The notes beneath the pieces were generated by a model that made no database searches, was not told the DNA's origin, and was given only the letters and a program-made list of their open reading frames with translations. A program made the translations under genes and the position numbers. From Alphaproteobacteria bacterium (lineage in GTDB: Bacteria > Pseudomonadota > Alphaproteobacteria > MPNO01 > UBA2964): 64,000 nt of DNA. Below are positions 40,380-55,831 of the stretch, one piece after another. The first letter of the stretch is position 1; each line of letters opens with the position of its first letter. The stretch lies in the NCBI GenBank assembly GCA_009377375.1, contig WHUE01000002.1, positions 33,350 through 97,349 of the forward strand. The letters are read 5' to 3'.

Positions 40380-40959
40380 ACAACCGTTGGTGATGCCGCC
40401 TGTCCACCATTTTTATGACAGGATTTTCTTGACAATCCTGATCTTTAAGTCTGCCTATAATATATATAATAATTTTTAATAAATATATACTCGAACATTT
40501 ATGTAATAAGTCATTTTAATCGAAGCATATCATGCTGTGACACAGATTTATCACAGACAAGAACCTTCCTCCTCCCCCATATGTGACCTAATGTAAGGCG
40601 GCTCGTGACATCTCGTGACATATCGTAAGTCCGATGGGCGGTATGGCGCGACTGGCTGCGGCCTCCCCCGTCGGAAGGTCAGGCGGATCTGTAAGAAGGA
40701 TTAGTCCCGATAGAGACATTAATCATTAAGCTTAGAGGAATACCCATTTTCCGTTCTCTTTAATAATCATCTTTAAGGTTAAACAATTATTTGTAGGGAC
40801 GCGTATTTTGGCTCTGTAAGAATTTGTGGTTAATCCTTCATGCTTGGTCCAATTTTGTAATGAGGCGCAAATCGGTGGTCGGCATGTTAAGTCTGCCGAA
40901 TCACGGGGCAAGACTCGGCGAATCCGATGATTCGTAAGAGTCGTATCAGAGGGTTGATC
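40380..40959. other. about 580-bp AT-rich intergenic tract (under ~40% GC in a ~68% GC genome) upstream of the LuxR-type regulator and the polysaccharide locus
   Basis: Runs such as taatatatataataatttttaataaatatatac; contains the 10-bp tandem repeat CTCGTGACAT x2 (40602-40621) and TGTGACACAG..TATCACAGAC (40536-40559). Confidence 0.6.
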
Positions 40960-41631
40960 ATGGCTATCCAGGAAGACTGCGCGCTGCGCGCAATGATTGT
41001 AGACCATAACCGCCTGTACCGGGCCGGTCTGAAGCTGACGCTGGAATCCGCGAATGTCAGGGTGGTTGCCGAAGGAGACGATCTCAAGGCTCTCATGGCC
41101 GGCTCGGATGAGGCCGGCGGCGACATCCTGCTGCTGAAGCTGCCGAGGGCGGCCGCCGTGGCGGAGGCGCTGGGAAACGCAAGACAGGCGTTTCCCGCCG
41201 CCAAGCTGGTGGTGATTGCGGATGCCAATCTGAATTCCGATGCGATGGTGACGGCGATTCAGGCGGGCGCGGACGGCGTCCTGCTGTCCGAGCTCTCTCC
41301 GGATGTGTTCCTGCAGTCGCTGCGTCTGGTCCGTCTGGGCGAGAAGGTCCTGCCTGCGCAGCTCGCCCGGATGCTCATCGGGGGCGACGCCCGTGTCTCG
41401 CATATGCCGAGCCAGATGCGTCAGCTGGGACTGTCGGCGCGGGAGATGGAAATCCTCCGGCTTCTGGTCGACGGCAGTTCGAACAAGGGCATTGCACGAC
41501 GCCTCGACATCGCGGAGGCAACCGTGAAGGTGCATGTCAAGGCCGTGCTGCGGAAGATCCAGGTGACGAACAGGACTCAGGCCGCGGTCTGGGCGCTCAA
41601 CCACGGGGTGGCCTGCGAGCAGGAGGCCTGA
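40960..41631 (+). CDS. LuxR/FixJ/NarL-family response regulator (receiver plus C-terminal LuxR HTH)
   Basis: C-terminal LuxR-type HTH (LSAREMEILRLLVDGSSNKGIARRLDIAEATVKVHVKAVLRKI) and an N-terminal receiver-like domain with an atypical acidic pocket. ATG at 40960 after a GAGGG RBS. Confidence 0.75.
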   Translation: MAIQEDCALRAMIVDHNRLYRAGLKLTLESANVRVVAEGDDLKALMAGSDEAGGDILLLKLPRAAAVAEALGNARQAFPAAKLVVIADANLNSDAMVTAIQAGADGVLLSELSPDVFLQSLRLVRLGEKVLPAQLARMLIGGDARVSHMPSQMRQLGLSAREMEILRLLVDGSSNKGIARRLDIAEATVKVHVKAVLRKIQVTNRTQAAVWALNHGVACEQEA

Positions 41632-43250: not shown

Positions 43251-44264
43251 TTACCGGTCATCCCAGATGTAGCGCCCGCGCTCGTGCCAATGGAGCCGCG
43301 TGCGAACGTGCTTGACGGCGAGAAGCGGACGCAGCACGGCGCGTTCCAGCTCTCCCATCGCGGCGCGCGCCAGATCGCCTGCGCCGGGCAGGCGGCCGAC
43401 CTGCCGCAGGGCGTTCACGTGAAAGTCGAAAAGCTGCCGCTCGCGCAGCAGGATCGCGCTGCGGATCAGGAACCGATAGTACCGACGCAGGAACCCCGCC
43501 TCGATCGCGGAGAGCTCGTCGGGCGCCAGGTAACGCGGGCCGAATTCGTGCAGCATGAGCAGGCTGTCCCGGAATTGCGTGCCCTTGCGGTCCGCCACGG
43601 TCGACGTCACCGAATCCTCATGCTCGCGGGAGAACATCAGCATCTCGTGGGCGAAGCCGAAATCCACGCGATCCAGCACGTCGAAGAACCCGGCTATGTC
43701 GGCGTGCAGGTAGCGATCGGGATAGAACGGCTTCGCGGGGTCGATCAGGTCGCGGCGGATCAGGCTGCCGGTCGGCGAAAACGCGAAGACTTCCTCCCGA
43801 AGAAACAGGCGCACGATCTCGCGGCCGCTGAAAACTTCCTGGTCCGGAGTCAGGCCGGCGCACTGGATCCGGCCCCCGCGCAGGCGCAGCGAGGCGACGA
43901 TTCCGACCGTCGGGTTCTGCTGTGCGATCGTCACCATTCGCGTCAGGCTGTCGCCTATCAGGGCGTCGTCCGCCGGCAGAACCCAGACGAACCTGCTCTC
44001 GTCGGAGATAAATCCGAGGGCCCGGTTCCAGTTTGCAACGACCGGCAGGTGATCCGTGCATTCCACGAGGCGTATGCGGGGACAGCGTGCGGCGTAGCCG
44101 GCGATAATGGCGCGCGTATCGTCGGTGCTCGCATTGTCCACGAAAACATGTTCGAAGCATGGATACTGCTGCGCCATCACGCTTTCAATGCATTCAGCAA
44201 GATAGCGACCGCCGTTGTAGACCGGCGTTACAATACTCACAAAGGGTAGATTCTGATTATCCAT
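43251..44264 (-). CDS. family-2 glycosyltransferase (GT-A fold)
   Basis: VSIVTPVYNGGRYLAECIESV.., DxD-like VDNASTDDT, and an acceptor-side ..PADD.. region. ATG at 44264 with an AGGGAGG RBS. Confidence 0.8.
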   Translation of the reverse strand: MDNQNLPFVSIVTPVYNGGRYLAECIESVMAQQYPCFEHVFVDNASTDDTRAIIAGYAARCPRIRLVECTDHLPVVANWNRALGFISDESRFVWVLPADDALIGDSLTRMVTIAQQNPTVGIVASLRLRGGRIQCAGLTPDQEVFSGREIVRLFLREEVFAFSPTGSLIRRDLIDPAKPFYPDRYLHADIAGFFDVLDRVDFGFAHEMLMFSREHEDSVTSTVADRKGTQFRDSLLMLHEFGPRYLAPDELSAIEAGFLRRYYRFLIRSAILLRERQLFDFHVNALRQVGRLPGAGDLARAAMGELERAVLRPLLAVKHVRTRLHWHERGRYIWDDR

Positions 44265-44347
44265 GGAACAGATCCCGCTGCCTCCCTTTAGTCGCAATCT
44301 AGGAGGTAGTCGATTTTAAGCTCCGGGCCAACCGGAATCCACGTGGC

Positions 44348-44453
44348 CCCTGAATGCTCACAGCAGATCACAGTTCGGCCACGGGTCCTTTCCGGACACC
44401 GCGCAGACCCTGAACGCTCACAGCTATCACAGTATGGCCACGGGCGCCTGTCG
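44348..44453 (+). promoter_or_regulatory. two about 46-bp imperfect direct repeats, each with paired (C)TCACAG elements, in the divergent GT2/rfbF promoter region
   Basis: cctgaatgCTCACAGcagaTCACAGttcggccacgggtcctttccgg (44348-44395) and cctgaacgCTCACAGctaTCACAGtatggccacgggcgcctgtcgg (44408-44453), spaced about 60 bp apart. Confidence 0.5.
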
Positions 44454-44626
44454 GCAAAATCCGATATCTACCTCTGACGAAAGCGCAACCGAATGTAACA
44501 CGCCATGTACGCACCGGGAGACGCATCACCAGATGGGAAGGGTCCGCACATGAAGGGAGTCGGCCGGCAGAAAAAGAATGTTTACGTGTTGATCAGAGGG
44601 CGAGCGCATCAAGGCGGAGCGGTGAC

Positions 44627-45400
44627 ATGAAAGTCGTGATCCTTGCGGGCGGCTATGGAACCCGCATCAGCGAAGAAACCACGGTGAAGCCGAAGCCGCT
44701 TGTTGAGATCGGCGGACGGCCTATTCTCTGGCACATCATGAAGATCTATTCGGCCTACGGCCTGACCGACTTCATCATATGCGGCGGATACAAGTGCTCG
44801 ATGATCAAGTCCTATTTCCGGGATTATGCGCTGGACTCCTCGGATGTGGAGTTCGACTACGCCAACGGGACGATGAACTTCCTCCGGCGCGAGGTCGAGC
44901 CGTGGCGGATCACCGTGATCGACACCGGCGAACACACCATGACCGGCGGGCGGATAAAGCGGATCCTGGATCGCGTCGACGACGACACGTTCTGCCTGAC
45001 CTACGGCGACGGAGTTTCCAACGTCGATATCCGCGACCTCATTCGCTATCACAAGGAGTCGGGGGCGCTGGCGACGCTGACGGCGGTGCAGCAGCCGGGC
45101 CGCTTCGGCGCCCTCGCGCTCGAACCGGACGACCGGCTCGTCCGCGCGTTCCGCGAGAAATCGAACGCCGACGGCGGCCTCATCAACGGCGGCTACTTCG
45201 TCGTCGACCGCGGGGTGGACGATTACATCGACGGAGACGACACCGTCTGGGAGCAGGAGCCGATGCAGTCGATGGCGCGCGACGGCATGCTCGCCGCGTA
45301 CCGCCATCTGGGCTTCTGGCAGAACATGGACACGCTGCGCGACAAGATGGTTCTCGAGAACCTCTGGCAGGAGAGTCCCCCGTGGAAGATCTGGCAATAA
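44627..45400 (+). CDS. rfbF: glucose-1-phosphate cytidylyltransferase (CDP-glucose pyrophosphorylase)
   Basis: [45 protein letters not shown] is a near-canonical RfbF/DdhA N-terminus. 257 aa. Confidence 0.9.
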
Positions 45401-45494
45401 CGCACGCCCGCGCCCCCGGCGCCGGCCGGGAGTCCTGCCTGGGCGTCGCGAAGCCCCGGCCCCTCCCATTGTCTGAACGGATTGAGAGACTGTC

Positions 45495-46787
45495 ATGGAT
45501 GCTGTCATGAATGTCGCCGCAAGCCCTGCAACCGAAGCGCAGCCCGATACCGGCCCGGGGCGTCCGCCCTGCCGGCTCTGCGGCGCGGCGCTGCACCGGA
45601 CATTCGTGGATCTGGGCGCCCAGCCGTCCGCCAACGCCTATCTGACCGCCAACCGGCTTTCGGGGATGGAGCCGACCTGGCCGCTGCACGCCTATGTCTG
45701 CGACGAGTGCCATCTGGTCCAGCTCGAGGCCCTGCACAACTCGGAGGAACTCTTCGCCGATTACGCCTATTTTTCCTCCTACGCGGATTCATGGCTCCGT
45801 CATGCGGAGATATACGCGGAACGGATGCTGGAGCGGTTCGCCCCGGACCGGCCGGAACTCGTGGTCGAGATCGCGAGCAACGACGGCTATCTCCTGCAGT
45901 ATTTCGTGCGCGAGGGCATCCCCGTGCTGGGGATCGATCCCGCAGCGAACGTGGCCGCCGCGGCCGAGGCGCGCGGCATACCCACCCTGGTCCGCTTTTT
46001 CGGACGCAAGCTGGCGACGGAGCTGGCGACGGGCGGGCGGTTCGCGGATCTGATCGTCGCCAACAACGTGCTGGCGCATGTCCCCGACATCAACGATTTC
46101 GCCGCTGGGTTCGCGCCGATCCTGCGGCCGCAGGGAATGGTGACGGTGGAGTTTCCCCATCTGCTCAGGCTGATCCAGGGCAACCAGTTCGACACGATCT
46201 ATCACGAGCATTTCTCCTATCTGTCGCTCGGCGTCGTGGAACGGCTGTTCGCAGCCCACGGGCTCGTCGTGTTCGATGTCGAGGAGCTGTCCACCCACGG
46301 CGGCTCGCTGAGAGTGTTCGCGGCGCGGCGCGATTCGGACCACGTCGTGTCGGAACGGGTCGCCGCCGTGCACGCGGACGAGGCCGCGGCGGGCATGGAC
46401 GGGCCGGAGGTCTACGACGCCTTCGCGGCGCGCGCGGCCCGCCTCAAGCGCGACCTGGTGCGGACCCTGATGGACCTGCGGGACGCCGGCAAGACGGTCG
46501 CCGCCTACGGCGCCCCGGCCAAGGGCAACACGCTCCTGAACTACTGCGGCATCGGCACCGACCTGGTGAAATTCACCGTCGACCGCAGCCCGCACAAGCA
46601 GGGGCGCTGGCTGCCCGGCAGCCGCATCCCGGTCTTCGAGCCTGAGCGGCTGCGCCAGGAGCGGCCGGACTACGTCCTGATCCTGCCCTGGAACCTGAAG
46701 TCGGAGATCATGATGGGCTGCGGTTTCATCCGCGAATGGGGCGGCAAGTTCATCGTGCCGATCCCCGCGGTCACGATCGTCCCATGA
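45495..46787 (+). CDS. NDP-hexose C-methyltransferase-family protein (zinc-ribbon, Methyltransf_13 and C-terminal C-MT domains; TylCIII/EryBIII-like)
   Basis: N-terminal CxxC..CxxC (CRLCGAAL..CDECHLV), a Rossmann MTase core (VVEIASNDGYLL), and a C-terminal C-methyltransferase-like domain. ATGA overlap with the downstream gene. Confidence 0.7.
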   Translation: MDAVMNVAASPATEAQPDTGPGRPPCRLCGAALHRTFVDLGAQPSANAYLTANRLSGMEPTWPLHAYVCDECHLVQLEALHNSEELFADYAYFSSYADSWLRHAEIYAERMLERFAPDRPELVVEIASNDGYLLQYFVREGIPVLGIDPAANVAAAAEARGIPTLVRFFGRKLATELATGGRFADLIVANNVLAHVPDINDFAAGFAPILRPQGMVTVEFPHLLRLIQGNQFDTIYHEHFSYLSLGVVERLFAAHGLVVFDVEELSTHGGSLRVFAARRDSDHVVSERVAAVHADEAAAGMDGPEVYDAFAARAARLKRDLVRTLMDLRDAGKTVAAYGAPAKGNTLLNYCGIGTDLVKFTVDRSPHKQGRWLPGSRIPVFEPERLRQERPDYVLILPWNLKSEIMMGCGFIREWGGKFIVPIPAVTIVP

Positions 46788-47332
46788 TCTTCCAGGCGAC
46801 GGAGATCGACGGCGCGTTCATCGTCGGCCTGGAGCGTCACGAGGACGAGCGCGGCTTCTTCGCCCGGACCTATTGCGCCGAGGAGTTCGGACAGCGGGGC
46901 CTGAACACGCGCTGGCCCCAGTGCAACCTGTCGCATTCCGACCGCACGGGCACGCTGCGCGGCATTCATTATCAGGCGCCCCCGGAGCCGGACGCCAAGC
47001 TGGTCCGGGTGACCCGGGGACGGATCTTCGGCGTGGTGGTGGAGCTTCGGCCGGATCGTCCGGCCTTCGGGCGTTCCCTGTGCCGCACGATGTCCGAGCA
47101 CGACGGCGCGATGTTCTACATCCCTGCCGGCTGCGGCTTCGGCTTTCAGACCCTGGCGGACGGAACCGAGCTGTTCTACCAGATGTCCGTCTCCTACCGC
47201 CCCGAGCTCGCGCGCGGCGTCCGGTGGGACGATCCGGATCTCGGGATAGAATGGCCGCTCGCGCCGAGCTGCGTGTCGGCCCGGGACGCCGCGTTTCCGC
47301 GGCTGCGCGACATCGCGCCGGCGCCCGTCTGA
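46784..47332 (+). CDS. dTDP/NDP-4-dehydro-6-deoxyhexose 3,5-epimerase-family (RmlC-like cupin) protein
   Basis: RmlC signature (..ERGFFARTY..NLSHSDRTGTLRGIHYQ..KLVRVTRGRIFGVVVELR..). 182 aa. Confidence 0.75.
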   Translation: MIFQATEIDGAFIVGLERHEDERGFFARTYCAEEFGQRGLNTRWPQCNLSHSDRTGTLRGIHYQAPPEPDAKLVRVTRGRIFGVVVELRPDRPAFGRSLCRTMSEHDGAMFYIPAGCGFGFQTLADGTELFYQMSVSYRPELARGVRWDDPDLGIEWPLAPSCVSARDAAFPRLRDIAPAPV

Positions 47333-47353
47333 ACCCGTCCCGCGCCGGCGGCG

Positions 47354-48808
47354 TCAGCGCGCCGCGGCCATCGTCTTGATCGTGCTCAGCGCGAAACGCT
47401 GAAGCGTCGGGCTCAGAATCCGGATCGCGATCCAGTAGACCAGCATCCCGACGGCGACGTCGAGCGAGAGCGCCGCCAACGCGCCGACCTTGCCGGAAAG
47501 CCACCGATCCGCGCCGAACACTGCTGCCCCCATGATCAGGCTGGCCGCCGCCGGCACATAGACGGGCTGCAGTAGCCAGGCGGCTCCGACGCCGAGCAGG
47601 CGGCGCAGAAGGAGCACGTGGACGGGCATCCAGGCAAAGGCCTTGCACACCCAGAACGCCGCCACCCAGACCACCGGCTCATGACGGAGCGCCAGGATGC
47701 CGGCGATCGTCAGCACGAGGTCCACGGCCATGAGGTACAGCACCCAGTCCGCGCGGCCCTTCGCGCGGTAGCACGCCGTGAAGAACATGGCGAAGAAGAC
47801 CGGGATGAAGTGCAGCGCGAGCCAGGCGAGGATCGGGACGCTCGCGGCCCACTTTGCGCCGTAAAACGCGACGATCAGGTGAGGCGCCACCAGGGCGAGG
47901 CCGATGCCGAGGGGGAGGCCGACCAGGCAGCTGAGCTGCGTGGCCTGCAGAAAGCTCGACCGCAGCGCCTCGCTGTTGTCCTGCAGGCGGGAGAACATGC
48001 TGAACCCGACCTGGTAGAGCGCGCTCGCGATCAGGGACCGCAGAAGCTGCATGGTCCGCCAGGCGATGTTGAAATAGCCGAGCACGACCGGCCCGTACAG
48101 AATGCCGAGCATCAGGTTGACCGCCTGCTCGGCGATGCCGGAGATCAGCTGGCCGGCCGAGACATGCAGGCCGAACCCGGCCATCGAACGAAAGCACGAC
48201 GTCGAGAAGCGAAGGCGCGGCATCCACCGGTACACCAGCGCCAGCGCGGCGTTCGTCGTCACCGCCGCGGCCAGCTGCTGTCCCACGAGGCTCCATGCGC
48301 CGCCGCCCAGAGCCGCCATCGTCAGCCCCACGACGGCGCCCGCCGTGCGGCCGACCAATGTCGCTCCCGCGACGTCGCGGAACCGGAGGTCGCGCCGAAG
48401 CATCGCCGTCTGCACGCTGCCCATCGCATTCAACGGCAGGATCAGGGCAAGCCAGTGCAGAATATCGGTGACCGCCGGCTCGCCTGTGATTCGGGCGATC
48501 GTGCCCGCGCCCGATGCCGTGGCGGCGGCCAGGAGAAGGGCGATGGCCAGCGTGCTCCAGAACGCGGTGTGGACATGATCGGGGCCGATCTCCCGCGCTT
48601 GCACCAAGGCGTCGGGAAAGCCATGGCCGATGACCAGGTTGAGCATCAGCACGACGGCGCCGGCCATGGCGACGATGCCGAAATCGACCGGCTCCAGGAG
48701 CCGGGCCATTCCGAGAAACGCGATCAGCGAGATGACGGCCGCGCCGGTACTCTCCGAAAGCGCCCAGAAGACGCTCCCCAGGCTGCGGTGTTTCAGACTT
48801 TCAGCCAT
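47354..48808 (-). CDS. wzx: polysaccharide/O-antigen flippase Wzx (MOP/PST superfamily)
   Basis: 484 aa with about 12-14 TM helices, typical of the Wzx/PST 'polysaccharide biosynthesis protein' family. Confidence 0.75.
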   Translation of the reverse strand: MAESLKHRSLGSVFWALSESTGAAVISLIAFLGMARLLEPVDFGIVAMAGAVVLMLNLVIGHGFPDALVQAREIGPDHVHTAFWSTLAIALLLAAATASGAGTIARITGEPAVTDILHWLALILPLNAMGSVQTAMLRRDLRFRDVAGATLVGRTAGAVVGLTMAALGGGAWSLVGQQLAAAVTTNAALALVYRWMPRLRFSTSCFRSMAGFGLHVSAGQLISGIAEQAVNLMLGILYGPVVLGYFNIAWRTMQLLRSLIASALYQVGFSMFSRLQDNSEALRSSFLQATQLSCLVGLPLGIGLALVAPHLIVAFYGAKWAASVPILAWLALHFIPVFFAMFFTACYRAKGRADWVLYLMAVDLVLTIAGILALRHEPVVWVAAFWVCKAFAWMPVHVLLLRRLLGVGAAWLLQPVYVPAAASLIMGAAVFGADRWLSGKVGALAALSLDVAVGMLVYWIAIRILSPTLQRFALSTIKTMAAAR

Positions 48809-48920
48809 CCCTGGCCGGACCCTTGTGGACGCCGGGCGTCATGGCCGGCCGCTGCCTATTCATAACCTGAACTGCCTCAAAAAAGAGTAATGAATTTAGG
48901 CATTTAATACCTATGCCCGG

Positions 48921-48960
48921 GTCACAACGTAGTCACATAGGATCACAACGTAGTCACATG
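48921..48960 (+). promoter_or_regulatory. four TCACA elements at 10-11 bp phasing (2x tandem 20-bp unit) in the divergent wzx/maoC promoter
   Basis: gGTCACAacgtaGTCACAtaggaTCACAacgtaGTCACAtgg, preceded by AT-rich aaaaaagagtaatgaatttaggcatttaatac. Confidence 0.5.
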
Positions 48961-48983: not shown

Positions 48984-49439
48984 ATGTCTCCATATCTACC
49001 GCGTCCAGTATACGGTGGAGCAGAGATGGGTATCGACGGACAGAAAGCTATTGCGGAATTCCGGATTACGCACGCGGAAATGGATGTCTTCCGCGCGCTG
49101 AGCGGAGACACCAATCCGATTCATGATGAATCCGACTATCCGCGCCGGCACGGGTTCGACGGCGCGGTGGTCTACGGCGGACTCCTGGTCGCGCAGATTT
49201 CGCGCTTCCTGGGCACCCGGCTGCCCGGGCCCGGCTGCGTCGAGCGGTCGATCACGCTGCGATACCGCGCCCCGCTCTATGTCGGTGAGCCGGCGCGTCT
49301 GATTGTCGAGGTTGTTCACGCGAACGAGGGGCTCGGGCTGGTCGACATGAAGCTCCGGATCGAATCCGGTTCACGCCGCATCGCGGAAGGCGAGGCGGCC
49401 GCGATGCTGGCCCGCGAGCGCGTCCTTGTGGAGGCATGA
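48984..49439 (+). CDS. MaoC-like (R)-specific hot-dog dehydratase
   Basis: MaoC dehydratase motifs (FRALSGDTNPIHDESDY.., GAVVYGGLLVAQISRFLG). An alternative ATG at 49026 has a better RBS (GGTGGAG). Confidence 0.7.
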   Translation: MSPYLPRPVYGGAEMGIDGQKAIAEFRITHAEMDVFRALSGDTNPIHDESDYPRRHGFDGAVVYGGLLVAQISRFLGTRLPGPGCVERSITLRYRAPLYVGEPARLIVEVVHANEGLGLVDMKLRIESGSRRIAEGEAAAMLARERVLVEA

Positions 49440-49475
49440 CCGGAACGGTCGCGTCTTCTCCGTAATCTGAATCGA

Positions 49476-51419
49476 ATGAGGCCCTGCGAAATGAGTGGCT
49501 CGCATTCCCCCTGCTCCCTCCACTGGCTGCCCCCGGCGGATCGCTTCGCGGCGCGGGTGGCGGAACTCCGCGACCGGACGGATGACGATCCGGAGCAGCG
49601 CTTCGCCGCGCTGCGCGCGGTCGCTGACCACCGGCTCGACTTTCTTGAAACCCGGCGCCTCGACCGCTTGCTCGAGGAGACGGCGGACACGGTGCCCGCC
49701 GACGTTCCGCGTCTCCGGTTGTCGCTGCTGGGCAGCGCGACGCTCGACCACCTGGTTCCGGCAATCCGCGTAGCGGCACTCCGGCGGGGCCTGGTCGTCG
49801 ATGTCGATGTCACGCCCTTCGGGCAGTGGCGCCAGCAGATACTGGACCCGGAATCCGCCCTCTACGCGTTCGAGCCCGGCTGCGTCCTCCTCGCGCCCGA
49901 CCTGTCGGCCCTCCTGTCCGAGCTGCCGCTGGACGCCACGGCCGCAGAGGCCGCGCTGGCGGTGGACGAGGCCGTCGACGATCTGGCGCAGCTCTGGCGC
50001 ATGGTCCGGGACCGGACCGGCGCCGCCATCCTGCAGGAGACGCCGTGGCTCGACGCACCGCCCCTTTACGGACATTTCGAACGGCACGTGCCGGGCTCGC
50101 CGGGCGCGGTCGCCCGCCGGCTGGACCGCGCACTGGACGAGGCGGCCGCCAAGGAAGGCGTGCTGCTGCTCGACCTGCGCAGCGCCGTCTACGGGATCGG
50201 CGCGCACCACGTTTCCGACAGCGCGTTGTGGCATCACGCGAAACAGGCGGTGTCTCCCCTCGCGGCGCCCTGGGTCGGCGATCACATCGCGCGAATCCTC
50301 GCCGCCATTCGCGGGCTGTCGAAGAAGGTCCTGGTGCTCGATCTCGACAACACGCTGTGGGGCGGCGTGATCGGGGACGACGGCCTGGACGGCATCGTCG
50401 TCGGTCAGGGCTCCGCCGCAGGCGAAGCCTTCGCCGCCTTTCAGCGCTACCTGAAGCGGCTCGGCGGGCGCGGCGTGGTGCTCGCGGTCAGCTCCAAGAA
50501 CGACCGGGCGGTCGCGCGCGCGGCGTTCACCGACCATCCCGAGATGGTGCTGCGGATCGACGACTTCGCATCCTTCGAGGCGGACTGGAACGACAAGCCG
50601 GCCGCGCTGCGGCGGATAGCGGAGGAGCTTTCGCTCGGCCTGGACTCGTTCGTCTTCGTGGACGACAACCCGGCGGAGCGGGCGCTCATGCGGCAGATCC
50701 TGCCGCAGGTCGCCGTCCCCGAGCTGCCGGAAGCGCCGGAGCTTTATGTCCGGTGCCTCGCCGATGCGGGGTATTTCGAGGCGGTCTCCTTCACCGCGGA
50801 AGACACCAGGCGGAACGCACAGTACGTGGCGAACCGGGAGCGGCGCGAGCTGGAGTCCTCGACGCAGGACATCGAGAGCTTCCTGCGCGACCTCCGGATG
50901 ACGCTGCAGGTCTCTCCCTTCCGTTCCGCGGACGTGCCCCGGATCACGCAGCTCATCAACAAGACCAACCAGTTCAACATGACGACGCGGCGCTATACCG
51001 AGGCCGAGGTGCGGGGCTTCATGCAGGATCCGAAGGTGCTCACCTTCGCCGCTCGCCTCAGCGATCGCTTCGGCGACAACGGGCTGACGAGCGTCGTCAT
51101 CTGCAGGCCATCCGACGACGGCCGCACGGAAGCGGGGCTGGAAATCGACACCTGGCTGATGAGCTGCCGCATTCTCGGCCGCCGCATCGAGCAGGCCATG
51201 CTGGCGGTGGTGGCGGAGAAGGCGTCGGAAGCGGGGGCGGACGTGCTGCTTGGCCGCTACCGTCCCACCAAGAAGAACGGCCTGGTGAAGGAGCTCTACC
51301 GGAACCTGGGCTTCGAGCTCCGCGAGATCAACAACCGGACCGGCGAGTCGACCTGGGCGTTTCCCCTCTCGATGCCGGCCCGTCCCGCCACGGATCATCT
51401 CCAACTGCAATACGAGTGA
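49476..51419 (+). CDS. FkbH-like / HAD-IIIC family protein (glyceryl-ACP-forming type) with about 280-aa N-terminal extension
   Basis: HAD-IIIC core (KVLVLDLDNTLWGGVIGDDG..VLAVSSKND..FVFVDDNPAE) typical of FkbH-like enzymes that load a glycerate-derived unit onto a carrier protein. 647 aa. Confidence 0.7.
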   Translation: MRPCEMSGSHSPCSLHWLPPADRFAARVAELRDRTDDDPEQRFAALRAVADHRLDFLETRRLDRLLEETADTVPADVPRLRLSLLGSATLDHLVPAIRVAALRRGLVVDVDVTPFGQWRQQILDPESALYAFEPGCVLLAPDLSALLSELPLDATAAEAALAVDEAVDDLAQLWRMVRDRTGAAILQETPWLDAPPLYGHFERHVPGSPGAVARRLDRALDEAAAKEGVLLLDLRSAVYGIGAHHVSDSALWHHAKQAVSPLAAPWVGDHIARILAAIRGLSKKVLVLDLDNTLWGGVIGDDGLDGIVVGQGSAAGEAFAAFQRYLKRLGGRGVVLAVSSKNDRAVARAAFTDHPEMVLRIDDFASFEADWNDKPAALRRIAEELSLGLDSFVFVDDNPAERALMRQILPQVAVPELPEAPELYVRCLADAGYFEAVSFTAEDTRRNAQYVANRERRELESSTQDIESFLRDLRMTLQVSPFRSADVPRITQLINKTNQFNMTTRRYTEAEVRGFMQDPKVLTFAARLSDRFGDNGLTSVVICRPSDDGRTEAGLEIDTWLMSCRILGRRIEQAMLAVVAEKASEAGADVLLGRYRPTKKNGLVKELYRNLGFELREINNRTGESTWAFPLSMPARPATDHLQLQYE

Positions 51420-51427
51420 GGATTCCC

Positions 51428-51676
51428 ATGGACGTTCCAGACATCCAGGCCAGTCTCGCAGAGATCATACGCGATGTTCTCGACGACCCCGACTTCGAGG
51501 TCACGCCGGAAACGTCCGCGGCCGATCATTCCGACTGGGATTCCTTCAGCCACATTTCGATCATCGTCGCGGCCGAGATGCGGTTCGGCATCAAGTTCCA
51601 GACCGCCGAGATCGAGAGCGCCTGCAATGTCGGAGACTTCGCCGCCCTGATTGCCCGGAAGTGCCAGGCGGCCTGA
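51428..51676 (+). CDS. acyl/peptidyl carrier protein (phosphopantetheine attachment site)
   Basis: 82 aa, acidic, with a DSxS-type attachment motif (DHSDWDSFSHISIIVAAE). RBS GAGGAT. Lies directly between the FkbH-like and MBOAT genes. Confidence 0.7.
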   Translation: MDVPDIQASLAEIIRDVLDDPDFEVTPETSAADHSDWDSFSHISIIVAAEMRFGIKFQTAEIESACNVGDFAALIARKCQAA

Positions 51677-51699
51677 GCCGGTAAAGGCGGGCCCGCAAG

Positions 51700-53322
51700 A
51701 TGCTCTTCAACGCCCCGGAGTTTCTCGTCGGTTTCCTTCCCGTCACGCTGATCGGCTTCTTCGCCATCGGCGCGTTCGGACGACCTTATCTCGCCATCCT
51801 CTGGCTGGTTGCCGCGTCGCTGTTCTTCTACGGCTGGTGGCGGCCCGAATTCGTGCTTCTGATCCTCGGCTCCGCGAGCTTCAACTACCTGGTCGGGCTC
51901 CGGCTCGGCCGGACGCCGAGCAGGAGCCTGCTGACCTTCGGCATCGCCGGCAATCTCGTCCTGTTGGGCTGGTTCAAGTATTCCGGCTTTCTGGCGGAGC
52001 TGATGAACGACCTTTCGGGCGCCGGTCTGCCGATCCCGTCGGTGGTGCTGCCGCTGGGAATTTCCTTCTATACCTTCCAGCAGATCGCCTACCTCGTGGA
52101 CGCCCATTCCGGCGACGCCCACGAAAAGAGCTTCGCCCATTACGCGCTGTTCGTGACGTTCTTTCCGCAGCTGATCGCGGGTCCCATCGTGCACCACCGC
52201 GAGATGCTGTCGCAGTTCCATCTGCCGGAAACGTACCGGCCGAAGCTGTCCAACCTGATCCTCGGCCTCGCTACGTTCTCGATCGGGCTGTTCAAGAAGG
52301 TGTTTATCGCCGATCCGCTCGGGGGGCAGGCGCAGCTGGCCTTCGGGCCGGCGGCGGAGGGCATCGTGCCGATGTTCGCCGATGCCTGGTTCGGCACGCT
52401 GGCCTACACGCTGCAACTCTACTTCGATTTCTCCGGTTACTCGGACATGGCCGTCGGGCTTGGCCTCATGTTCGGCATCCGGCTTCCCCTCAACTTCGCC
52501 TCGTCCTTCAAGTCGGGCAGCATCATCGAGTTCTGGTCGCGCTGGCACATGACGCTGACGCGGTTCCTGACCGCCTACATCTACAATCCTGTCGTCGTGG
52601 CGATCACGCGGCGCCGTGTGGCCGCCGGCAAGCCGGTCCTGCGCCAGAAGCGTCCGGAGGCGGTGCCGTTCGCGGTCCAGCTCGCGTTCCCGACGCTGCT
52701 CACCATGGGCCTCGCCGGGATCTGGCACGGCGCGGGCTGGCAGTTCCTCGTCTTCGGGCTGTTTCACGGCATGCTGCTGGTCATCAACCATGGCTGGCGC
52801 GCACTCCGTCGCGTTTACGGCGTCGACCGGAAATTCGGGCGCCCGGGGCAGATCGCGGCCGTGCTCGTGACGTTCCTGTCGGTGACCGTCAGCTTCGTCT
52901 TCTTCCGCTCGGACAGCCTCGAACACGCGCTGCTGATCGTGCAGGCCATGGCAGGGTTCGGCGGAGAGTTCCGGGGCATCCCCTCCGCGACCGGACCAGA
53001 TCTCGCGGCCATGGGCGGATCCGAGATGCTGCTCTGGCGCTTTACCACCTTGCCGGGGATTCTCGTGATCGCCGGCCTGGCCATCGTGTGGACGCTGCCC
53101 AACACCGCCCAGATCATCGAACGCATCGCCGCCGGGGCGGAGCGGCCGACGGAGGCCGCCCGGCGCGTGATCCGCTGGCCGCTGCTGCGCTGGGACATGC
53201 CGGTCCGGCTTCCGTTCGAGAATCGCTTTCTGCAGGGGTCTTGCGTCGGCGCCCTGCTCGCCCTGGCCCTGCTCCGGGTTCTTTCCGCTGCGCCCACCGA
53301 GTTCCTTTACTTTACCTTCTAG
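51700..53322 (+). CDS. MBOAT-family membrane-bound O-acyltransferase (AlgI/DltB-like)
   Basis: 540 aa, polytopic, with conserved MBOAT His region (..WSRWHMTLTRFL.. and GIWHGAGWQFL). Confidence 0.85.
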   Translation: MLFNAPEFLVGFLPVTLIGFFAIGAFGRPYLAILWLVAASLFFYGWWRPEFVLLILGSASFNYLVGLRLGRTPSRSLLTFGIAGNLVLLGWFKYSGFLAELMNDLSGAGLPIPSVVLPLGISFYTFQQIAYLVDAHSGDAHEKSFAHYALFVTFFPQLIAGPIVHHREMLSQFHLPETYRPKLSNLILGLATFSIGLFKKVFIADPLGGQAQLAFGPAAEGIVPMFADAWFGTLAYTLQLYFDFSGYSDMAVGLGLMFGIRLPLNFASSFKSGSIIEFWSRWHMTLTRFLTAYIYNPVVVAITRRRVAAGKPVLRQKRPEAVPFAVQLAFPTLLTMGLAGIWHGAGWQFLVFGLFHGMLLVINHGWRALRRVYGVDRKFGRPGQIAAVLVTFLSVTVSFVFFRSDSLEHALLIVQAMAGFGGEFRGIPSATGPDLAAMGGSEMLLWRFTTLPGILVIAGLAIVWTLPNTAQIIERIAAGAERPTEAARRVIRWPLLRWDMPVRLPFENRFLQGSCVGALLALALLRVLSAAPTEFLYFTF

Positions 53323-53331
53323 GTGCGTGTG

Positions 53332-54330
53332 ATGAAGAAGTTCGGCTACGGCATTCTCGCGGGGCTCCTCGCCGTTCCTCTCTGCATCGTCGCGGCGTTC
53401 GCCGGCCTTGCGGTCTTCGCGCCGGCCAGCATGCCGGCGCCGGCAATCTCGAGCCTTGTTCATCTGGACGAGAAGTTCCGGTTTCTGCGCGAGCACCCGG
53501 AATTCGACCCGAGGATACTCGCCGTGGGATCGTCCATCACATGGCGCCAGCTGGCCGGCAAGGCCCTCGAGGCGGAGGCCGGCGGCCCGCACGGCTTCCT
53601 GAACGGCGGCACCGGCTATCTCCGGGTTCACCAGACGCATGCCTTGACGCGGTTCTACCTTTCGCGCTTCCGGAACGTCCGTGTCGTCCTCGTCATGATC
53701 GGCCCGCCAGATTTCCGGGGCTGCACCGAGGACCCGGCGGAACTCTTCGTGCAGAAGGACGCGGCGCGTTATGCGTTCGAAGGCTGGCCGGCGCTGTATT
53801 TCTACCTGCGCTACTTCACGCCCCGGCGCTACCTGGAGACAACGATGAAGCTGGCCGGCCGGCAGGCGCCGCTCGGCGGCGATCTCTATCTCGATCCCTA
53901 CGGCTCGGGTCCCGTTCAGTTGCCGGACGGCGTGAAAACCGGGCTCCGCTACGGCAAGCTCGACAAGGATCCTGCCTGTGTCGACGCGCTGGTCGGGCTG
54001 GCGCAGGATTTGAAGGACCGGGGTATCCACCTGATGCTCGTCTTTCCCCCGGTCCACCCGGAATACCGGGCGCGTTTCCCCGACGAAATGCGCTGGCTCG
54101 AGAATGCGGCTGCGCGCATGGAGCGTGAGCGGCAAAAGAACCCCCGCCATCTCACGGTTCTCCGAATGTACGGCGACAATTCGTTCGCGGCGCGGGATTA
54201 CTTCGATGCCTTTCACCTGCAATGGCCGGCGGTGAAAATTCTGTCGACACGCATCGCCCAGGCGATGGCGGTCAGGCCGTTCGTTCCGCCGGAGGAAGGA
54301 CTCTACTCGCAGAGGAAAGGCAGCAGCTGA
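53332..54330 (+). CDS. signal-anchored DltD/AlgJ/AlgX-like (SGNH-type) periplasmic acyl-transfer partner of the MBOAT
   Basis: N-terminal anchor (FGYGILAGLLAVPLCIVAAFAGLAVFA) and SGNH-like block (ILAVGSSITW). Position immediately after the MBOAT mirrors dltB-dltD and algI-algJ. A GTG at 53323 is an alternative start. Confidence 0.5.
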   Translation: MKKFGYGILAGLLAVPLCIVAAFAGLAVFAPASMPAPAISSLVHLDEKFRFLREHPEFDPRILAVGSSITWRQLAGKALEAEAGGPHGFLNGGTGYLRVHQTHALTRFYLSRFRNVRVVLVMIGPPDFRGCTEDPAELFVQKDAARYAFEGWPALYFYLRYFTPRRYLETTMKLAGRQAPLGGDLYLDPYGSGPVQLPDGVKTGLRYGKLDKDPACVDALVGLAQDLKDRGIHLMLVFPPVHPEYRARFPDEMRWLENAAARMERERQKNPRHLTVLRMYGDNSFAARDYFDAFHLQWPAVKILSTRIAQAMAVRPFVPPEEGLYSQRKGSS

Positions 54331-54488
54331 GGGCAAATCTGCCTCGCCCTGTCGCGGCCTTCCTGCGCCGGGCGGCCGCTTTTCTGCCCTTGCGCAAATT
54401 TAGCCCCGCCGGGCTGTTTTTCGGGGGCCGGTTCGCATTAGACTGCGCGCGCCGCATCGGGCAGACCGGTACGAAGGAAAGACCGCGG

Positions 54489-55157
54489 GTGATCGACAAG
54501 CAGGTGCATGATTTCGACGCCGCCCTGGCGGGGGTCGGCGACGGGGCGACAATGATGGTCAGCGGGTTCGGCGCCGCCGGCGCGCCGCAGGACCTGATGG
54601 AGGCGATTCTCGACCGCGGCTGGCGCGACCTGGTGGTGATCTCCAACAACGCGGGCGAGGGCGAGCGCGGGCTGGCGCAGCTGATCCGGGCGGGACGGGT
54701 GCGCAAGGTGGTGTGCTCGTTCCCCACCTCGTCCAATGCCGAATATGTCCGCGACGCCTGGGCGCGCGGCGCGCTGGAGCTGGAGATCGTGCCCCAGGGC
54801 ACGCTGTCCGAGCGCATCCGCGCGGCCGGGGCGGGGATCGGCGGGTTCTACACCCGCACCTCCGTCGGCACGCCGCTGGCGGAGGGCAAGGAGCAGCGGT
54901 GCTTCGACGGCGTGGATTACGTGCTGGAACCGCCCCTTCGCGCCGGTTTCGCTTTCGTCAGGGCGCGGCTCGCCGACCGCTGGGGGAACCTCACCTACAA
55001 CAAGTCGGCGCGCAATTTCGGCCCGTCGATGGCGATGGCGGCCGACGTGACCGTGGTGCAGGTGGACCGCGTCGTCGGGCTGGGCGAGATCGACCCCGAG
55101 CAGGTGGTCACGCCCGGCATTTTCGTCGATCGCGTGATCGAGGTGGCGGCGACATGA
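54489..55157 (+). CDS. scoA: 3-oxoacid CoA-transferase subunit A
   Basis: ..MVSGFGAAGAPQDLMEAI.. and SENG-region motifs of the family I CoA-transferase alpha subunit. GTG start after an AAGGAAAG RBS. Confidence 0.85.
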   Translation: MIDKQVHDFDAALAGVGDGATMMVSGFGAAGAPQDLMEAILDRGWRDLVVISNNAGEGERGLAQLIRAGRVRKVVCSFPTSSNAEYVRDAWARGALELEIVPQGTLSERIRAAGAGIGGFYTRTSVGTPLAEGKEQRCFDGVDYVLEPPLRAGFAFVRARLADRWGNLTYNKSARNFGPSMAMAADVTVVQVDRVVGLGEIDPEQVVTPGIFVDRVIEVAAT

Positions 55158-55831
55158 CCGCGGCCAAGCTGACCCGCGCGCAGGTCGCCTGGCGGATCGC
55201 GCAGGACATCCCCGACGGCGCCGTCGTCAATCTGGGCATAGGCGCGCCGGTGATGGTGGCCGACTACCTGCCCGCCGACCGCGAGATCGTGATCCACAGC
55301 GAGAACGGCATCCTCGGCATGGGCCCGACCCCGCCGGCGGGCGAGGAGGACCCGGACCTGATCAATGCCGGCAAGCAGCCTGTGACGCTTCTGGCCGGCG
55401 GCAGCTATTTCAACCACACCGATTCCTTCGCGATGATCCGCGGCGGGCATCTCGACTGCTGTGTGCTGGGCGCGTTCCAGGTGGCGCAGAACGGCGATCT
55501 CGCCAACTGGTCGACCGGCGACAACGCGCGTCCGCCCGGCGTCGGCGGGGCGATGGATCTGGCTGTGGGGGCGAAGCGGGTGCTGGTGATGACCGACCAC
55601 TGCACCCGCGACGGTTCGCCGAAGCTGCTGGAGGTCTGCACCTATCCGCTGACCGGGCGCGGCGTGGTCGACCGGGTCTATACCGACCTTGCCGTGATCG
55701 ATATCGCGGACGGTCGCTTCGTCGTGCGCGAGATGGTCGCGGGGCTGGATGCGGACGGGCTGGAGGCGCTGACCGGCGCGCCGCTGGATTTCGCCGACGG
55801 CTGCGGCGTGCTTTCCGCCGCCATCGGCTGA
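55154..55831 (+). CDS. scoB: 3-oxoacid CoA-transferase subunit B
   Basis: ATGA overlap with scoA. Active-site Glu region (IHSENGILGMG). Confidence 0.9.
   Translation: MTAAKLTRAQVAWRIAQDIPDGAVVNLGIGAPVMVADYLPADREIVIHSENGILGMGPTPPAGEEDPDLINAGKQPVTLLAGGSYFNHTDSFAMIRGGHLDCCVLGAFQVAQNGDLANWSTGDNARPPGVGGAMDLAVGAKRVLVMTDHCTRDGSPKLLEVCTYPLTGRGVVDRVYTDLAVIDIADGRFVVREMVAGLDADGLEALTGAPLDFADGCGVLSAAIG

Follow-up and report, generated by a model that had tools for sequence, protein, structure and literature searches.

Five genes lie in a tight row on the plus strand between positions 48984 and 54330 of the window, as we call the whole 64,000-nucleotide stretch of alphaproteobacterial DNA analysed here; separated by gaps of 8-36 nt, they encode, in order, a MaoC dehydratase, a 647-aa FkbH-family protein, an 82-aa carrier protein, a 540-aa MBOAT, and a membrane-anchored SGNH-fold protein (Table 1), each at the place given in a first-pass annotation of the sequence. 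The tight spacing and the terminator-like site 3' of the SGNH gene, ahead of a group of CoA-transferase genes, support an operon structure. At the other end, the region between MaoC and the divergent Wzx gene of a small glycan set (43251-48808) carries a tandem direct repeat, which is unique within the window (none expected), is also kept upstream of MaoC in a close relative (locus L088), and is a candidate operator of the operon.

Table 1. Features of the operon and of the adjacent glycan set, in window coordinates.
Feature	Position	Strand	Basis or remark
GT2	43251-44297	-	adjacent glycan set
Glucose-1-phosphate cytidylyltransferase RfbF	44627-45400	+	adjacent glycan set
Sugar C-methyltransferase	45495-46787	+	adjacent glycan set
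RmlC-like epimerase	46736-47332	+	adjacent glycan set
Wzx/MOP flippase	47354-48808	-	adjacent glycan set, divergent from MaoC
Tandem direct repeat, 2 x 20 nt, 21-nt register	48919-48959		Wzx/MaoC intergenic region
MaoC-type single hot-dog (R)-specific hydratase/dehydratase	48984-49439	+	PF01575, E 2.6e-9
Three-domain FkbH-family loader	49476-51419	+	TIGR01686 FkbH, TIGR01681 HAD-IIIC, PF21211 FkbH_N
Discrete 82-aa acyl carrier protein	51428-51676	+	PF00550, 22.9 bits (cut-off 20.8)
540-aa MBOAT	51700-53322	+	PF03062, E 1.1e-22
Codons for C-terminal FLYFTF (FxYxxF acyl-shuttle motif)	53302-53319	+	sequence; motif definition from PMC12148441
Membrane-anchored extracytoplasmic SGNH-fold acyltransferase partner	53323-54330	+	likely start ATG 53332
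Terminator-like GC hairpin and T-run	54401-54426	+	end of operon

The FkbH-like protein scores 303.5 bits against TIGR01686 (cut-off 146.65). Its N-terminal domain of about 280 aa, first described as being of unknown function, is catalogued as PF21211 (FkbH_N, here residues 81-275) and has a degenerate SGNH/GDSL-like fold, solved in PDB 3SLR; 3SLR, the sole solved relative of long-form FkbH, is an unannotated structural-genomics entry. The protein further contains HAD-IIIC phosphatase motifs (D289-L-D291-N-T293, S340-K-N, K374, D396-D397) and a GNAT-fold C-terminal domain with an invariant M-S-C564-R. Conservation is 99-100% for the HAD nucleophile motif and for the cysteine of MSCR (99% for the latter), a combination that fits a substrate bearing an acyl phosphate plus a phospho-ester. 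To our knowledge, no long-form FkbH protein (about 640 aa, with FkbH_N) has a demonstrated substrate; the characterised FkbH enzymes that we know of are about 360 aa long and lack this domain. The C. johrii orthologue is already named D-glyceryl-ACP synthase in one source, by an automated name.

The carrier protein contains the DSxS phosphopantetheine site that had been noted in it, within HSDWDSFS; W37-D38-S39 are 99-100% conserved among 80 FkbH-adjacent carrier proteins, and Ser39 of this invariant W-D-S is the predicted phosphopantetheine site. The MaoC protein has human HTD2, an ACP-thioester dehydratase, and the PhaJ (R)-hydratases as its best solved relatives and keeps the hydratase-2 Asp/His motif intact (Asp42/His47 in GDTNPIH); its proposed role is the dehydration of glyceryl-S-ACP, with the enol of pyruvoyl-S-ACP as product.

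The MBOAT has a DltB-like core (aa 116-402) with His283 (RWH) and His343 (WHG), as aligned to DltB (6BUG/8JEM), and a C-terminal extension, which adds two hydrophobic segments (about 443-473 and 510-536) and ends in FLYFTF; its only match in the curated library is the DltB model TIGR04091, at 176.5 bits where the cut-off is 375. In PatA/PatB, the Tyr of FxYxxF carries the acyl group between MBOAT and SGNH protein, and in the Dlt pathway the same motif is located on DltX (PMC12148441); Tyr537 of the window's protein is the predicted acyl-Tyr intermediate. Such a shuttle ending is found in 40 of the 66 MBOAT reading frames in FkbH loci, and, one interrupted reading frame set aside (L027), the full-length MBOATs by an FkbH-ACP pair that are at least 40% identical to the window's all end in F[LI]Y[FW]xF. 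The fifth protein has homologues in 1390 cluster representatives (E<=1e-3) and the invariant residues G69-S70-S71, N94, D295, and H298, which include the catalytic Ser/Asp/His set, plus Cys134 and Cys219. It matches no Pfam or NCBIfam family, the DltD and AlgJ/AlgX models included; its initial label, DltD/AlgJ-like, is thus apt for fold and role and wrong for family membership, while the expected models TIGR01686, PF00550, and PF03062 were matched by the other proteins.

A synteny search for FkbH-ACP-MBOAT triads, proposed with the first-pass annotation, was made with the FkbH protein alone as query and gathered 80 genome loci, 65 of them with adequate flanks. Of these 65, 54 have a carrier protein next to FkbH and an MBOAT no more than 4.5 kb away, so that the grouping is not a chance juxtaposition. 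The 54 cassettes span at least eight phyla or classes, among them Proteobacteria, Acidobacteria, Verrucomicrobia, Planctomycetes, Cyanobacteria, and Elusimicrobia; the cassette is present in two laboratory model species, in Cereibacter sphaeroides 2.4.1 and on Sinorhizobium meliloti pSymB. Across phyla, the ACP-MBOAT linkage is kept in two different gene orders. The second architecture comprises FkbH, an ACP, a protein of ~370 aa, a microprotein of 41-45 aa, a short MBOAT, MaoC, and an SDR; the microprotein, separate from the MBOAT, is a DltX-like single helix ending in xVYxGF, and the whole has the layout of Dlt with FkbH replacing DltA. Profile comparison of the partner proteins of other cassette subclasses gave no tie to the SGNH family. 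In one locus (L003), the loader is swapped: downstream of an MBOAT that is 49% identical to the window's and ends in FLYFTF, and of a protein of the same SGNH family, lie an amino-acid adenylation enzyme (345.7 bits to TIGR01733, cut-off 317.4) and a carrier protein.

FkbH cassettes of both architectures repeatedly include MaoC and SDR, MaoC usually with SDR, and free-standing MaoC, SDR, FkbH, and ACP genes occur together in six of them (L004, L006, L009, L011, L013, L090). This suggests that the carrier-bound unit is tailored from glyceryl over pyruvoyl to lactyl, and lends indirect support to the pyruvoyl thioester envisaged in the first-pass annotation, whose formation from glyceryl-ACP by MaoC is chemically plausible. 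In the window, as in L088, MaoC occurs without an SDR, so that the final acyl group here could be glyceryl, pyruvoyl, or lactyl via a reductase encoded elsewhere; we know of no envelope polymer that bears an O-pyruvoyl or O-lactyl ester.

The closest parallel in layout is the Dlt system (DltA-DltC-DltB-DltX-DltD), which D-alanylates teichoic acid in Gram-positives: as in the proposed pathway, a cytoplasmic loader charges a small phosphopantetheinyl carrier, and the acyl group passes from the MBOAT to the Tyr of FxYxxF outside the membrane, on to a membrane-anchored SGNH protein, and thence to the polymer (PMC12148441). The operon differs in its loader (an FkbH-type HAD/GNAT enzyme instead of the adenylating DltA), in the shuttle motif (fused to the MBOAT C-terminus instead of residing on the DltX microprotein), in an MBOAT under the DltB cut-off and an SGNH protein with no match to DltD, and in an added on-carrier tailoring enzyme, MaoC. 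Teichoic acid is not expected in the alphaproteobacterial host. Dlt-derived, carrier-protein-dependent envelope modification in Gram-negatives is represented by AlmE-AlmF-AlmG of Vibrio cholerae (glycine onto lipid A) and by the Bordetella dra locus, which have adenylating loaders and use amino acids; AlmG, whose target is lipid A, does not belong to the MBOATs. L003, with its adenylation enzyme, carrier, and MBOAT-SGNH pair, is of the same general kind. The Gram-negative O-acetylation systems built on an MBOAT-SGNH pair (PatA/PatB on peptidoglycan, AlgI/J/F/X, and the WssH/I type) "lack a similar carrier protein" and rely on acetyl-CoA (PMC12148441), whereas the operon has a dedicated carrier and loader.

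With FkbH, OzmB, and the tetronate glyceryl-ACP synthases, the loader shares the TIGR01686 match, the HAD motifs, the conserved Cys, and a neighbouring discrete ACP; the PF21211/3SLR domain is extra. FkbH-type polyketide enzymes convert 1,3-bisphosphoglycerate to glyceryl-S-ACP (PMC7489565), an activity that we assume for the operon loader; the consumer of the product is a synthase in the polyketide pathways, whereas here we propose a membrane acyltransferase. The six cassettes with a full MaoC-SDR-FkbH-ACP set recall modules of the BryA type, with dehydratase, ketoreductase, FkbH, and carrier. In BryA (bryostatin), the DH-KR-FkbH-ACP loading module of a trans-AT PKS reportedly is proposed to turn glyceryl-ACP into D-lactyl-ACP; the cassette proteins, however, are discrete and not domains, their dehydratase is of the MaoC type, and their product would go to an MBOAT instead of a ketosynthase. 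Flagellin of C. jejuni 11168 bears di-O-methylglyceric-acid pseudaminic acid (PMC3068675), and its glycosylation locus contains the FkbH-domain gene cj1302 (PMC7099621), to which the glyceroyl group may be linked; the parallel lies in the location of an FkbH-domain gene in a glycan locus, in a strain with a glycerate-derived acyl group on its glycan. There, it is presumably the cytoplasmic nucleotide sugar that is modified, and no MBOAT-SGNH pair takes part, unlike in the operon.

In the pathway that we propose, Cys564 of the FkbH-family enzyme would capture the acyl phosphate of 1,3-bisphosphoglycerate from glycolysis, the HAD domain (Asp289) would strip the 3-phosphate, and the glyceryl unit would be handed to the phosphopantetheine at Ser39 of the carrier, as family membership and the conserved residues lead us to expect. 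From gene co-occurrence and chemistry, MaoC would dehydrate glyceryl-S-ACP, with tautomerisation to pyruvoyl-S-ACP; relatives with an SDR would go on by reduction to lactyl-S-ACP, and those with neither MaoC nor SDR would transfer glyceryl itself. The acyl-ACP would dock at the cytoplasmic face of the MBOAT, where the conserved His343 would catalyse the move of the acyl group to Tyr537 of FLYFTF on the periplasmic side, a step modelled on the shuttle motif and on the PatA and DltB/DltX mechanisms. The SGNH protein, judging from its fold and conserved residues, would be acylated at Ser70 or Ser71, assisted by His298 and Asp295, and pass the group to an acceptor hydroxyl.

This acceptor is most likely a glycan and here possibly the product of the neighbouring CDP-glucose/GT2/Wzx genes, as had been suggested for the adjacent locus. 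RfbF (62% identity) directly adjoins the SGNH gene in Cereibacter sphaeroides (L006), with GT2 next to it; RfbF and the C-methyltransferase are again neighbours of the cassette in one genome each of Burkholderiales and Aridibacter (L017, L067); the S. meliloti cassette lies about 5 kb from the capsule export genes rkpR/S/T; and Wzx is the divergent neighbour of the cassette in the window and probably also in L088. All this speaks against the same chain from ACP over MBOAT Tyr to SGNH Ser serving a general envelope component, such as LPS core or O-chain, periplasmic glucan, peptidoglycan, a lipoprotein, or a lipid head group, to which we nonetheless accord a chance somewhat short of even: close relatives of the cassette sit in other contexts (L001 flanked by LolA, L,D-transpeptidase, and porin genes; L003 next to photosynthesis genes; L004 among fatty-acid genes; L090 beside ribosomal and chemotaxis genes), and the window's glycan set comprises only one GT besides a flippase, with no polymerase or initiating transferase found in the annotated part. 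Linkage of the cassette to glycan genes is recurrent, not universal, and the adjacent-locus polysaccharide is thus weakly supported as the acceptor.

As to the acyl group, the long-form enzyme may not use 1,3-bisphosphoglycerate but load a different one, with some other acyl phosphate or phospho-ester as its source and perhaps with help from the extra N-terminal domain, in which case the decoration would not stem from glycerate. In favour of this are its size relative to characterised FkbH enzymes and the pairing of MBOAT and SGNH protein with an aminoacyl loader in L003, where this pair also works and so does not dictate the acyl group. We think this unlikely in view of a TIGR01686 score twice the cut-off, the conserved HAD nucleophile and MSCR Cys, the recurrent MaoC and SDR, which fit a beta-hydroxy acyl thioester such as glyceryl, and the automated name of the C. 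johrii orthologue. The transfer of plain glyceryl, with MaoC serving as a thioesterase that edits mis-loaded carrier protein or being a fatty-acid enzyme that merely shares the promoter, would accord with a weak match to the hot-dog thioesterase PF13622 (E 2e-4, below cut-off), with cassettes that have no MaoC (L001, L089, most Acidobacteria) or MaoC without SDR, and with the downstream CoA-transferase genes; the intact Asp/His motif, the dehydratases and hydratases among the solved relatives, and the place of MaoC within cassettes of both architectures make it quite improbable. That FkbH and ACP feed secondary metabolism (tetronate, methoxymalonyl, or glycerate-primed PKS/NRPS), with MBOAT and SGNH protein as unrelated neighbours, would surprise us greatly: it is the only experimentally established FkbH-ACP role (PMC7489565), and an MBOAT is absent from 11 of the 65 FkbH loci with adequate flanks, but no ketosynthase or other PKS gene and no FabH-like, FkbI/K/G-like, or NRPS gene was found among the 23 scanned window genes or in the close relatives' gene tables, the ACP-MBOAT linkage holds across phyla, and shuttle motif and SGNH partner complete a known transfer chain.

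The core of the first-pass proposal, a Dlt-like transfer from ACP to MBOAT to SGNH protein with an FkbH-type loader, is strengthened by FLYFTF, the invariant SGNH residues, the FkbH motifs, the loader swap in L003, and the DltX-like microprotein; for the identity of acyl group and acceptor, we infer from gene content and family resemblance. We found no published description of this FkbH-loaded variant of known envelope-acylation machinery. Against our explanation count the fifth protein's lack of a curated-family match together with an MBOAT under the DltB cut-off, the varied genomic context of the cassettes, the partner proteins of other subclasses that profile comparison did not tie to the SGNH family, and the reactive alpha-keto thioester that would result here from the missing SDR; the glycerate-derived acyl group on the C. 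jejuni glycan is a precedent in its favour. On balance, we hold it to be reasonably probable that the five proteins form an MBOAT-SGNH system which depends on a carrier protein and by which an extracytoplasmic polymer of the envelope is O-acylated with a glycerate-derived three-carbon acyl group.

The five reading frames of the operon are separated by gaps of 36, 8, 23 and 0-9 nt and are taken, from the sequence, as one transcription unit, preceded in a window of about 66-70% GC, from a metagenome-assembled alphaproteobacterium, by an AT-richer intergenic region of 175 nt that is common to the divergent Wzx flippase gene. The direct repeats of this divergent promoter region (see the table) have a 17-nt core that is unique in the window, and the same repetition of the core is found 5′ of MaoC in L088, the closest relative of the cassette; the pair looks like a candidate operator for a tandem-binding regulator. 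No Rfam family was found in or around the operon. The CoA-transferase genes that follow it could be read as part of the module, supplying for example a 3-hydroxybutyryl or acetoacetyl route; this is rejected because a terminator-like site intervenes and because, among the cassettes, only the closest relative L088 has these genes alongside, while they do not occur 3′ of more distant ones, and the shared neighbourhood is probably synteny by descent, not function.

Positions of the operon, its flanking elements and the related cassettes (L numbers are genome loci)
Feature	Location	Strand	Content
Direct repeats	window 48919-48959		two 20-nt repeats, GGGTCACAACGTAGTCACAT and GGATCACAACGTAGTCACAT, in 21-nt register in the divergent Wzx/MaoC promoter region, 25 nt 5′ of the MaoC start
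Operon	window 48984-54330	+	MaoC, FkbH-like, carrier protein, MBOAT, SGNH-fold protein
Terminator-like site	window 54401-54426		GC hairpin and T-run, 3′ of the operon
CoA-transferase genes	window 54489-55831; L088 6944-8286		3-oxoacid CoA-transferase A and B subunits, after the terminator-like site
Operon neighbours			divergent Wzx flippase, then RmlC-like epimerase, sugar C-methyltransferase, glucose-1-phosphate cytidylyltransferase, GT2
Second architecture	L066 6233-9031; L072 11685-14443; L048 11966-14473; same layout in L075, L077, L084		FkbH, ACP, ~370-aa protein, 41-45-aa DltX-like microprotein (xVYxGF), short motif-less MBOAT, often MaoC and SDR
Loader swap	L003 7455-11998		window-type MBOAT (49% identity, FLYFTF end) and window-type SGNH, then amino-acid adenylation enzyme (585 aa), 80-aa carrier
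Second transferase pair	L001 1793-4495	-	MBOAT (515 aa, 41% identical, FLYFRF end) and a 377-aa partner of its own; the FkbH-ACP-MBOAT-SGNH operon lies divergently
Paroceanicella profunda plasmid pD4M1C	L092 7708-17273		ACP, FkbH-like, then SAM methyltransferase, VOC-family protein, hypothetical, MprF, AcvB/VirJ lysyl-PG hydrolase
Sinorhizobium meliloti cassettes	L091, strain 1021 pSymB 622289-642042; L093, strain ml28		between lsr (AI-2 uptake) and rkpR/S/T capsule export genes

Elsewhere the window carries a LuxR-type response regulator gene (40927-41631) and a selenium-metabolism cluster resembling the selenoneine (sen) genes (27827-32383 and 34537-35559), which includes a 755-aa flavoprotein fused to a selenophosphate-synthetase-like protein (AIRS/AIRS_C), an EgtB-like DinB_2 and FGE-sulfatase protein and a GT1 glycosyltransferase; near it stands a 'putative selenate ABC transporter substrate-binding protein' (TIGR04553, 394.8 bits).

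Both its model score and its catalytic residues place the loader in the FkbH family. It scores 303.5 bits against TIGR01686 (FkbH; cut-off 146.65) and, in its HAD-IIIC part, 63 bits against TIGR01681 (cut-off 35.75); D289-x-D291-x-T293, which in the window protein reads D289-L-D291-N-T293 (HAD DxDxT), S340-K-N, K374, D396-D397, NQFN and M-S-C564-R are either invariant or conserved at 99%, in one set of 78 homologues as well as in another of 42. In the C-domain, of GNAT fold, the conserved Cys564 is presumably the residue that holds the acyl group as an acyl-S-enzyme, as in OzmB. HAD nucleophile and cysteine together fit the two-step FkbH chemistry, and glyceryl-ACP synthesis is predicted. The 280-aa N-terminal domain, which the first-pass annotation gave as a domain of unknown function, is catalogued and structurally solved (PF21211, 3SLR), with a degenerate SGNH-like fold; almost no polar residues are conserved in it across the same two sets. 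The 82-aa carrier protein, whose gene begins 9 nt past the stop codon of FkbH, lies above the PP-binding threshold, and its W37-D38-S39 is conserved at 99-100% in 80 carrier proteins adjoining FkbH homologues.

The MBOAT matches PF03062 (E 1.1e-22), and with it the family assignments proposed earlier for loader, carrier and MBOAT all stand. DltB is the sole curated bacterial model that it matches (TIGR04091, 176.5 bits, cut-off 375); residues 116-402 align to DltB structures, with RWH (His283) and WHG (His343) both kept. The DltB-like core is followed by two extra hydrophobic segments and then by the C-terminus PTEFLYFTF, which ends in an FxYxxF hexapeptide. In PatA, the invariant Tyr of a C-terminal FXYXXF hexapeptide is auto-acetylated and PatB takes the acyl group from it; in the Dlt pathway the motif is located on the microprotein DltX, and in other MBOATs it is borne on two extra C-terminal helices (Anderson et al., PMC12148441).

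The fifth protein has no family match in Pfam or NCBIfam, DltD and the AlgJ/AlgX types included; a hypothetical protein deposited in GenBank under 'Alphaproteobacteria bacterium' is 100% identical to it. Its model (pLDDT 93) shows one N-terminal helix and then an SGNH fold, with the polymer O-acyltransferases OatA-C, PatB and DltD among its structural neighbours, and G69-S70-S71, N94, D295, H298 and two cysteines are invariant in 41 homologues; it is, by sequence and model, a separate and putatively extracytoplasmic SGNH-fold partner with a predicted Ser-His-Asp triad. The DltD/AlgJ-like identity first given to it thus holds for the modelled fold but not for the family. Clustered at 50% identity, the family comprises about 1,390 representatives; PF27429 is precomputed for two of its members, and a Pfam scan of one of these two returned no match. 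The proteins 3′ of the MBOAT in other subclasses (in Acidobacteria, in cyanobacteria, the ~370-aa protein of the second architecture and the 409-aa protein of S. meliloti) likewise gave nothing in Pfam, and hhalign of such partner proteins to the profile of the fifth protein gave no significant result, with only a GDS-like block aligned.

The nature of the acyl group would depend on the enzymes that accompany loader and carrier. The MaoC protein (151 aa; PF01575, 37.2 bits, cut-off 27) keeps the hydratase-2 Asp/His motif as GDTNPIH at residues 41-47, and among solved structures its best relatives are the PhaJ (R)-hydratases and HTD2, a dehydratase of ACP thioesters. Dehydration of glyceryl-S-ACP would give the enol of pyruvoyl-S-ACP, from which a ketoreductase would then yield lactyl-S-ACP; for the loading module of the bryostatin synthase, DH-KR-FkbH-ACP, the same dehydrate-then-reduce logic has reportedly been put forward. 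Neither MaoC nor SDR is found in the closely related cassettes L001 and L089, MaoC alone in the window cassette and its 89-94%-identical relative L088, and both in L004 and L090 and in the Cereibacter sphaeroides loci L006, L009, L011 and L013; in the second architecture the two recur after the MBOAT. Where the two enzymes were mapped by tblastn, their counts are lower bounds. The predicted donors are glyceryl where neither enzyme is present, pyruvoyl or lactyl with MaoC alone and lactyl with both. As the whole 64 kb encode no SDR of the cassette type, the acyl end product of the window cassette is uncertain. An acyl group derived from glycerate is already known from one bacterial glycan, that of Campylobacter jejuni 11168, which carries di-O-methylglyceric-acid pseudaminic acid (PMC3068675); the glycosylation locus of this strain contains an FkbH-domain gene, cj1302 (PMC7099621), which may be linked to that glyceric-acid group.

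Eighty loci were retrieved from one-genome-per-species contigs with the FkbH protein alone, the other components being mapped by tblastn; their lineages include Alpha-, Beta- and Gammaproteobacteria, Myxococcota, Acidobacteria, Verrucomicrobia, Planctomycetes, Cyanobacteria, Elusimicrobia and Chloroflexi. The FkbH-ACP-MBOAT triads for which the first-pass annotation had proposed to look are common: among 65 adequately flanked loci, 54 have a carrier protein adjacent to FkbH together with an MBOAT no more than 4.5 kb away, and the other 11 have no MBOAT. The 54 divide into 27 and 27 by whether the identity of the MBOAT to that of the window reaches 39%, not by presence of the motif. In the closer group the C-termini read F[LI]Y[FW]xF, except in L027 (interrupted frame) and L057 (weaker, split match); in the other the MBOATs are 25-33% identical, mostly shorter and motif-less, and five (L051, L053, L058, L059, L079) retain an FxYxxF-like C-terminal hexapeptide. 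Where motif-less loci were inspected (6/6), a micro-ORF of 41-45 residues, forming a single helix and ending in xVYxGF or FIYFAF, lies beside the ~370-aa protein. This second architecture, hosted by Pyrinomonadaceae, Verrucomicrobia and Myxococcaceae, is in its predicted components the Dlt layout with FkbH replacing DltA.

Further loci vary the loader or the transferase. The L003 cassette, directly after puf/photosynthetic reaction-centre genes, is a putative Dlt-like aminoacylation system in a phototrophic proteobacterium; in L001 a single loader and carrier may serve both transferase pairs; and FkbH-ACP pairs may also feed membrane-lipid modification, as at L092, where there is no MBOAT. Cultured carriers include C. 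sphaeroides 2.4.1, ATCC 17029 and KD131, C. johrii, Sphaerothrix gracilis, Kiloniella spongiae and two Paraburkholderia species. In C. sphaeroides 2.4.1 (FkbH orthologue ABA77676.1) the cassette runs MaoC, SDR, FkbH, ACP and MBOAT, and the SGNH gene is divergent. On pSymB of S. meliloti the order is MBOAT (PPFLYQGF end), 409-aa protein, ACP and FkbH-like, about 5 kb from rkpR/S/T; the FkbH gene of strain 1021 matches in two frames (an apparent frameshift) and is intact in 2011, Rm41 and others. Public annotations call the cassette proteins 'HAD-IIIC family phosphatase', 'MBOAT family protein' or 'hypothetical protein', and one record names the 409-aa partner a 'TonB-dependent receptor', a label that looks wrong.

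Among characterised systems, the nearest are those in which an MBOAT with conserved His, a C-terminal FxYxxF motif and an SGNH partner occur together, features by which MBOAT-SGNH systems are recognised in sequence (PMC12148441) and which the operon shares by sequence and model. The 2025 account divides them into Dlt, with a carrier protein and a separate DltX, and all others, with an acyl-CoA donor, no carrier protein and the motif fused to the MBOAT (PMC12148441). The operon has a dedicated carrier protein, like Dlt, and a fused shuttle motif, like PatA and AlgI. Unlike Dlt, it has no DltA, no DltD and no separate DltX, its MBOAT stays below the cut-off of the DltB model, and its loader is a TIGR01686 FkbH; neither do the five operon proteins match an AMP-binding family nor did a search of the window yield an AMP-binding homologue, which supports the earlier proposal that an FkbH-type enzyme replaces the D-alanine ligase. 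It differs from PatAB in possessing a carrier protein, and from AlgI/AlgJ/AlgF/AlgX in a fifth protein that has no AlgJ/AlgX-type match, and none of the 23 window genes scanned is an alginate gene. The system is thus predicted to work like Dlt and PatAB, yet is a member of neither.

FkbH proteins are otherwise known from polyketide or non-ribosomal synthesis, and the operon could belong to a secondary-metabolite pathway; this reading is rejected because no synthase genes were found among the 23 window genes scanned or in the gene tables of the close relatives. The FkbH protein would be used here outside such synthesis. In the full-text literature, where most subscription-journal papers lie outside coverage, no description of an FkbH-ACP-MBOAT cassette was found, in agreement with the first-pass annotation, which could not place the arrangement in any characterised system; FkbH and MBOAT are mentioned together only in cyanobacterial natural-product work, where the two genes are uncoupled.

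As for the acceptor, the best guess in this genome, and one that we think somewhat likelier to fail than to hold, is a glycan with a CDP-glucose-derived sugar. The glucose-1-phosphate cytidylyltransferase beside the operon scores 387 bits against TIGR02623 (cut-off 300); in C. sphaeroides the SGNH gene is directly followed by a 62%-identical RfbF orthologue and by a GT2, and a Burkholderiales and an Aridibacter genome likewise have RfbF and the C-methyltransferase beside the cassette. Other close relatives of the cassette lie among unrelated genes, and the glycan set of the window has a single glycosyltransferase, with no polymerase seen among the genes annotated. A 313-aa protein encoded at window 23665-24606 has a PEP-CTERM sorting motif, a sign that the organism has an exosortase system and, by association, makes exopolysaccharide.

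On the mechanism as a whole, which we infer from gene linkage and models as well as from homology and motifs, many Gram-negatives, C. sphaeroides and S. meliloti included, would have an unrecognised class of envelope modification, acting outside the cytoplasm, in which 1,3-bisphosphoglycerate serves as direct acyl donor without ATP or CoA, the carrier-bound group is tailored to glyceryl, pyruvoyl or lactyl, and an MBOAT acyl-tyrosine shuttle passes it to a surface polymer; we hold this tentatively, at just short of an even chance. The window operon represents a third combination, of carrier-protein donor and fused shuttle motif, and its relatives a fourth, in which an FkbH loader goes with a DltX-like microprotein of its own; on this comparison each of the four parts, from loader and carrier to shuttle and transferase, is an exchangeable module. 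The usual substituents of envelope polymers are acetyl, succinyl, D-alanyl and ketal-pyruvyl groups, a list on which hydroxy- and keto-acid esters do not stand; if the FkbH assignment holds, envelope polymers would be decorated with such esters straight from glycolysis. The expected substituents, O-glyceroyl and O-lactoyl esters, have to our knowledge no known biosynthetic genes, and the cassette might account for glycerate esters such as those of gellan. Two sets of proteins would also gain a role: the large SGNH family of about 1,400 cluster representatives, so far without annotation, and the FkbH proteins of the long form, for which 'HAD-IIIC family phosphatase' is the only annotation. The cassette is widespread, and its occurrence in two genetically tractable model organisms makes the prediction directly testable.
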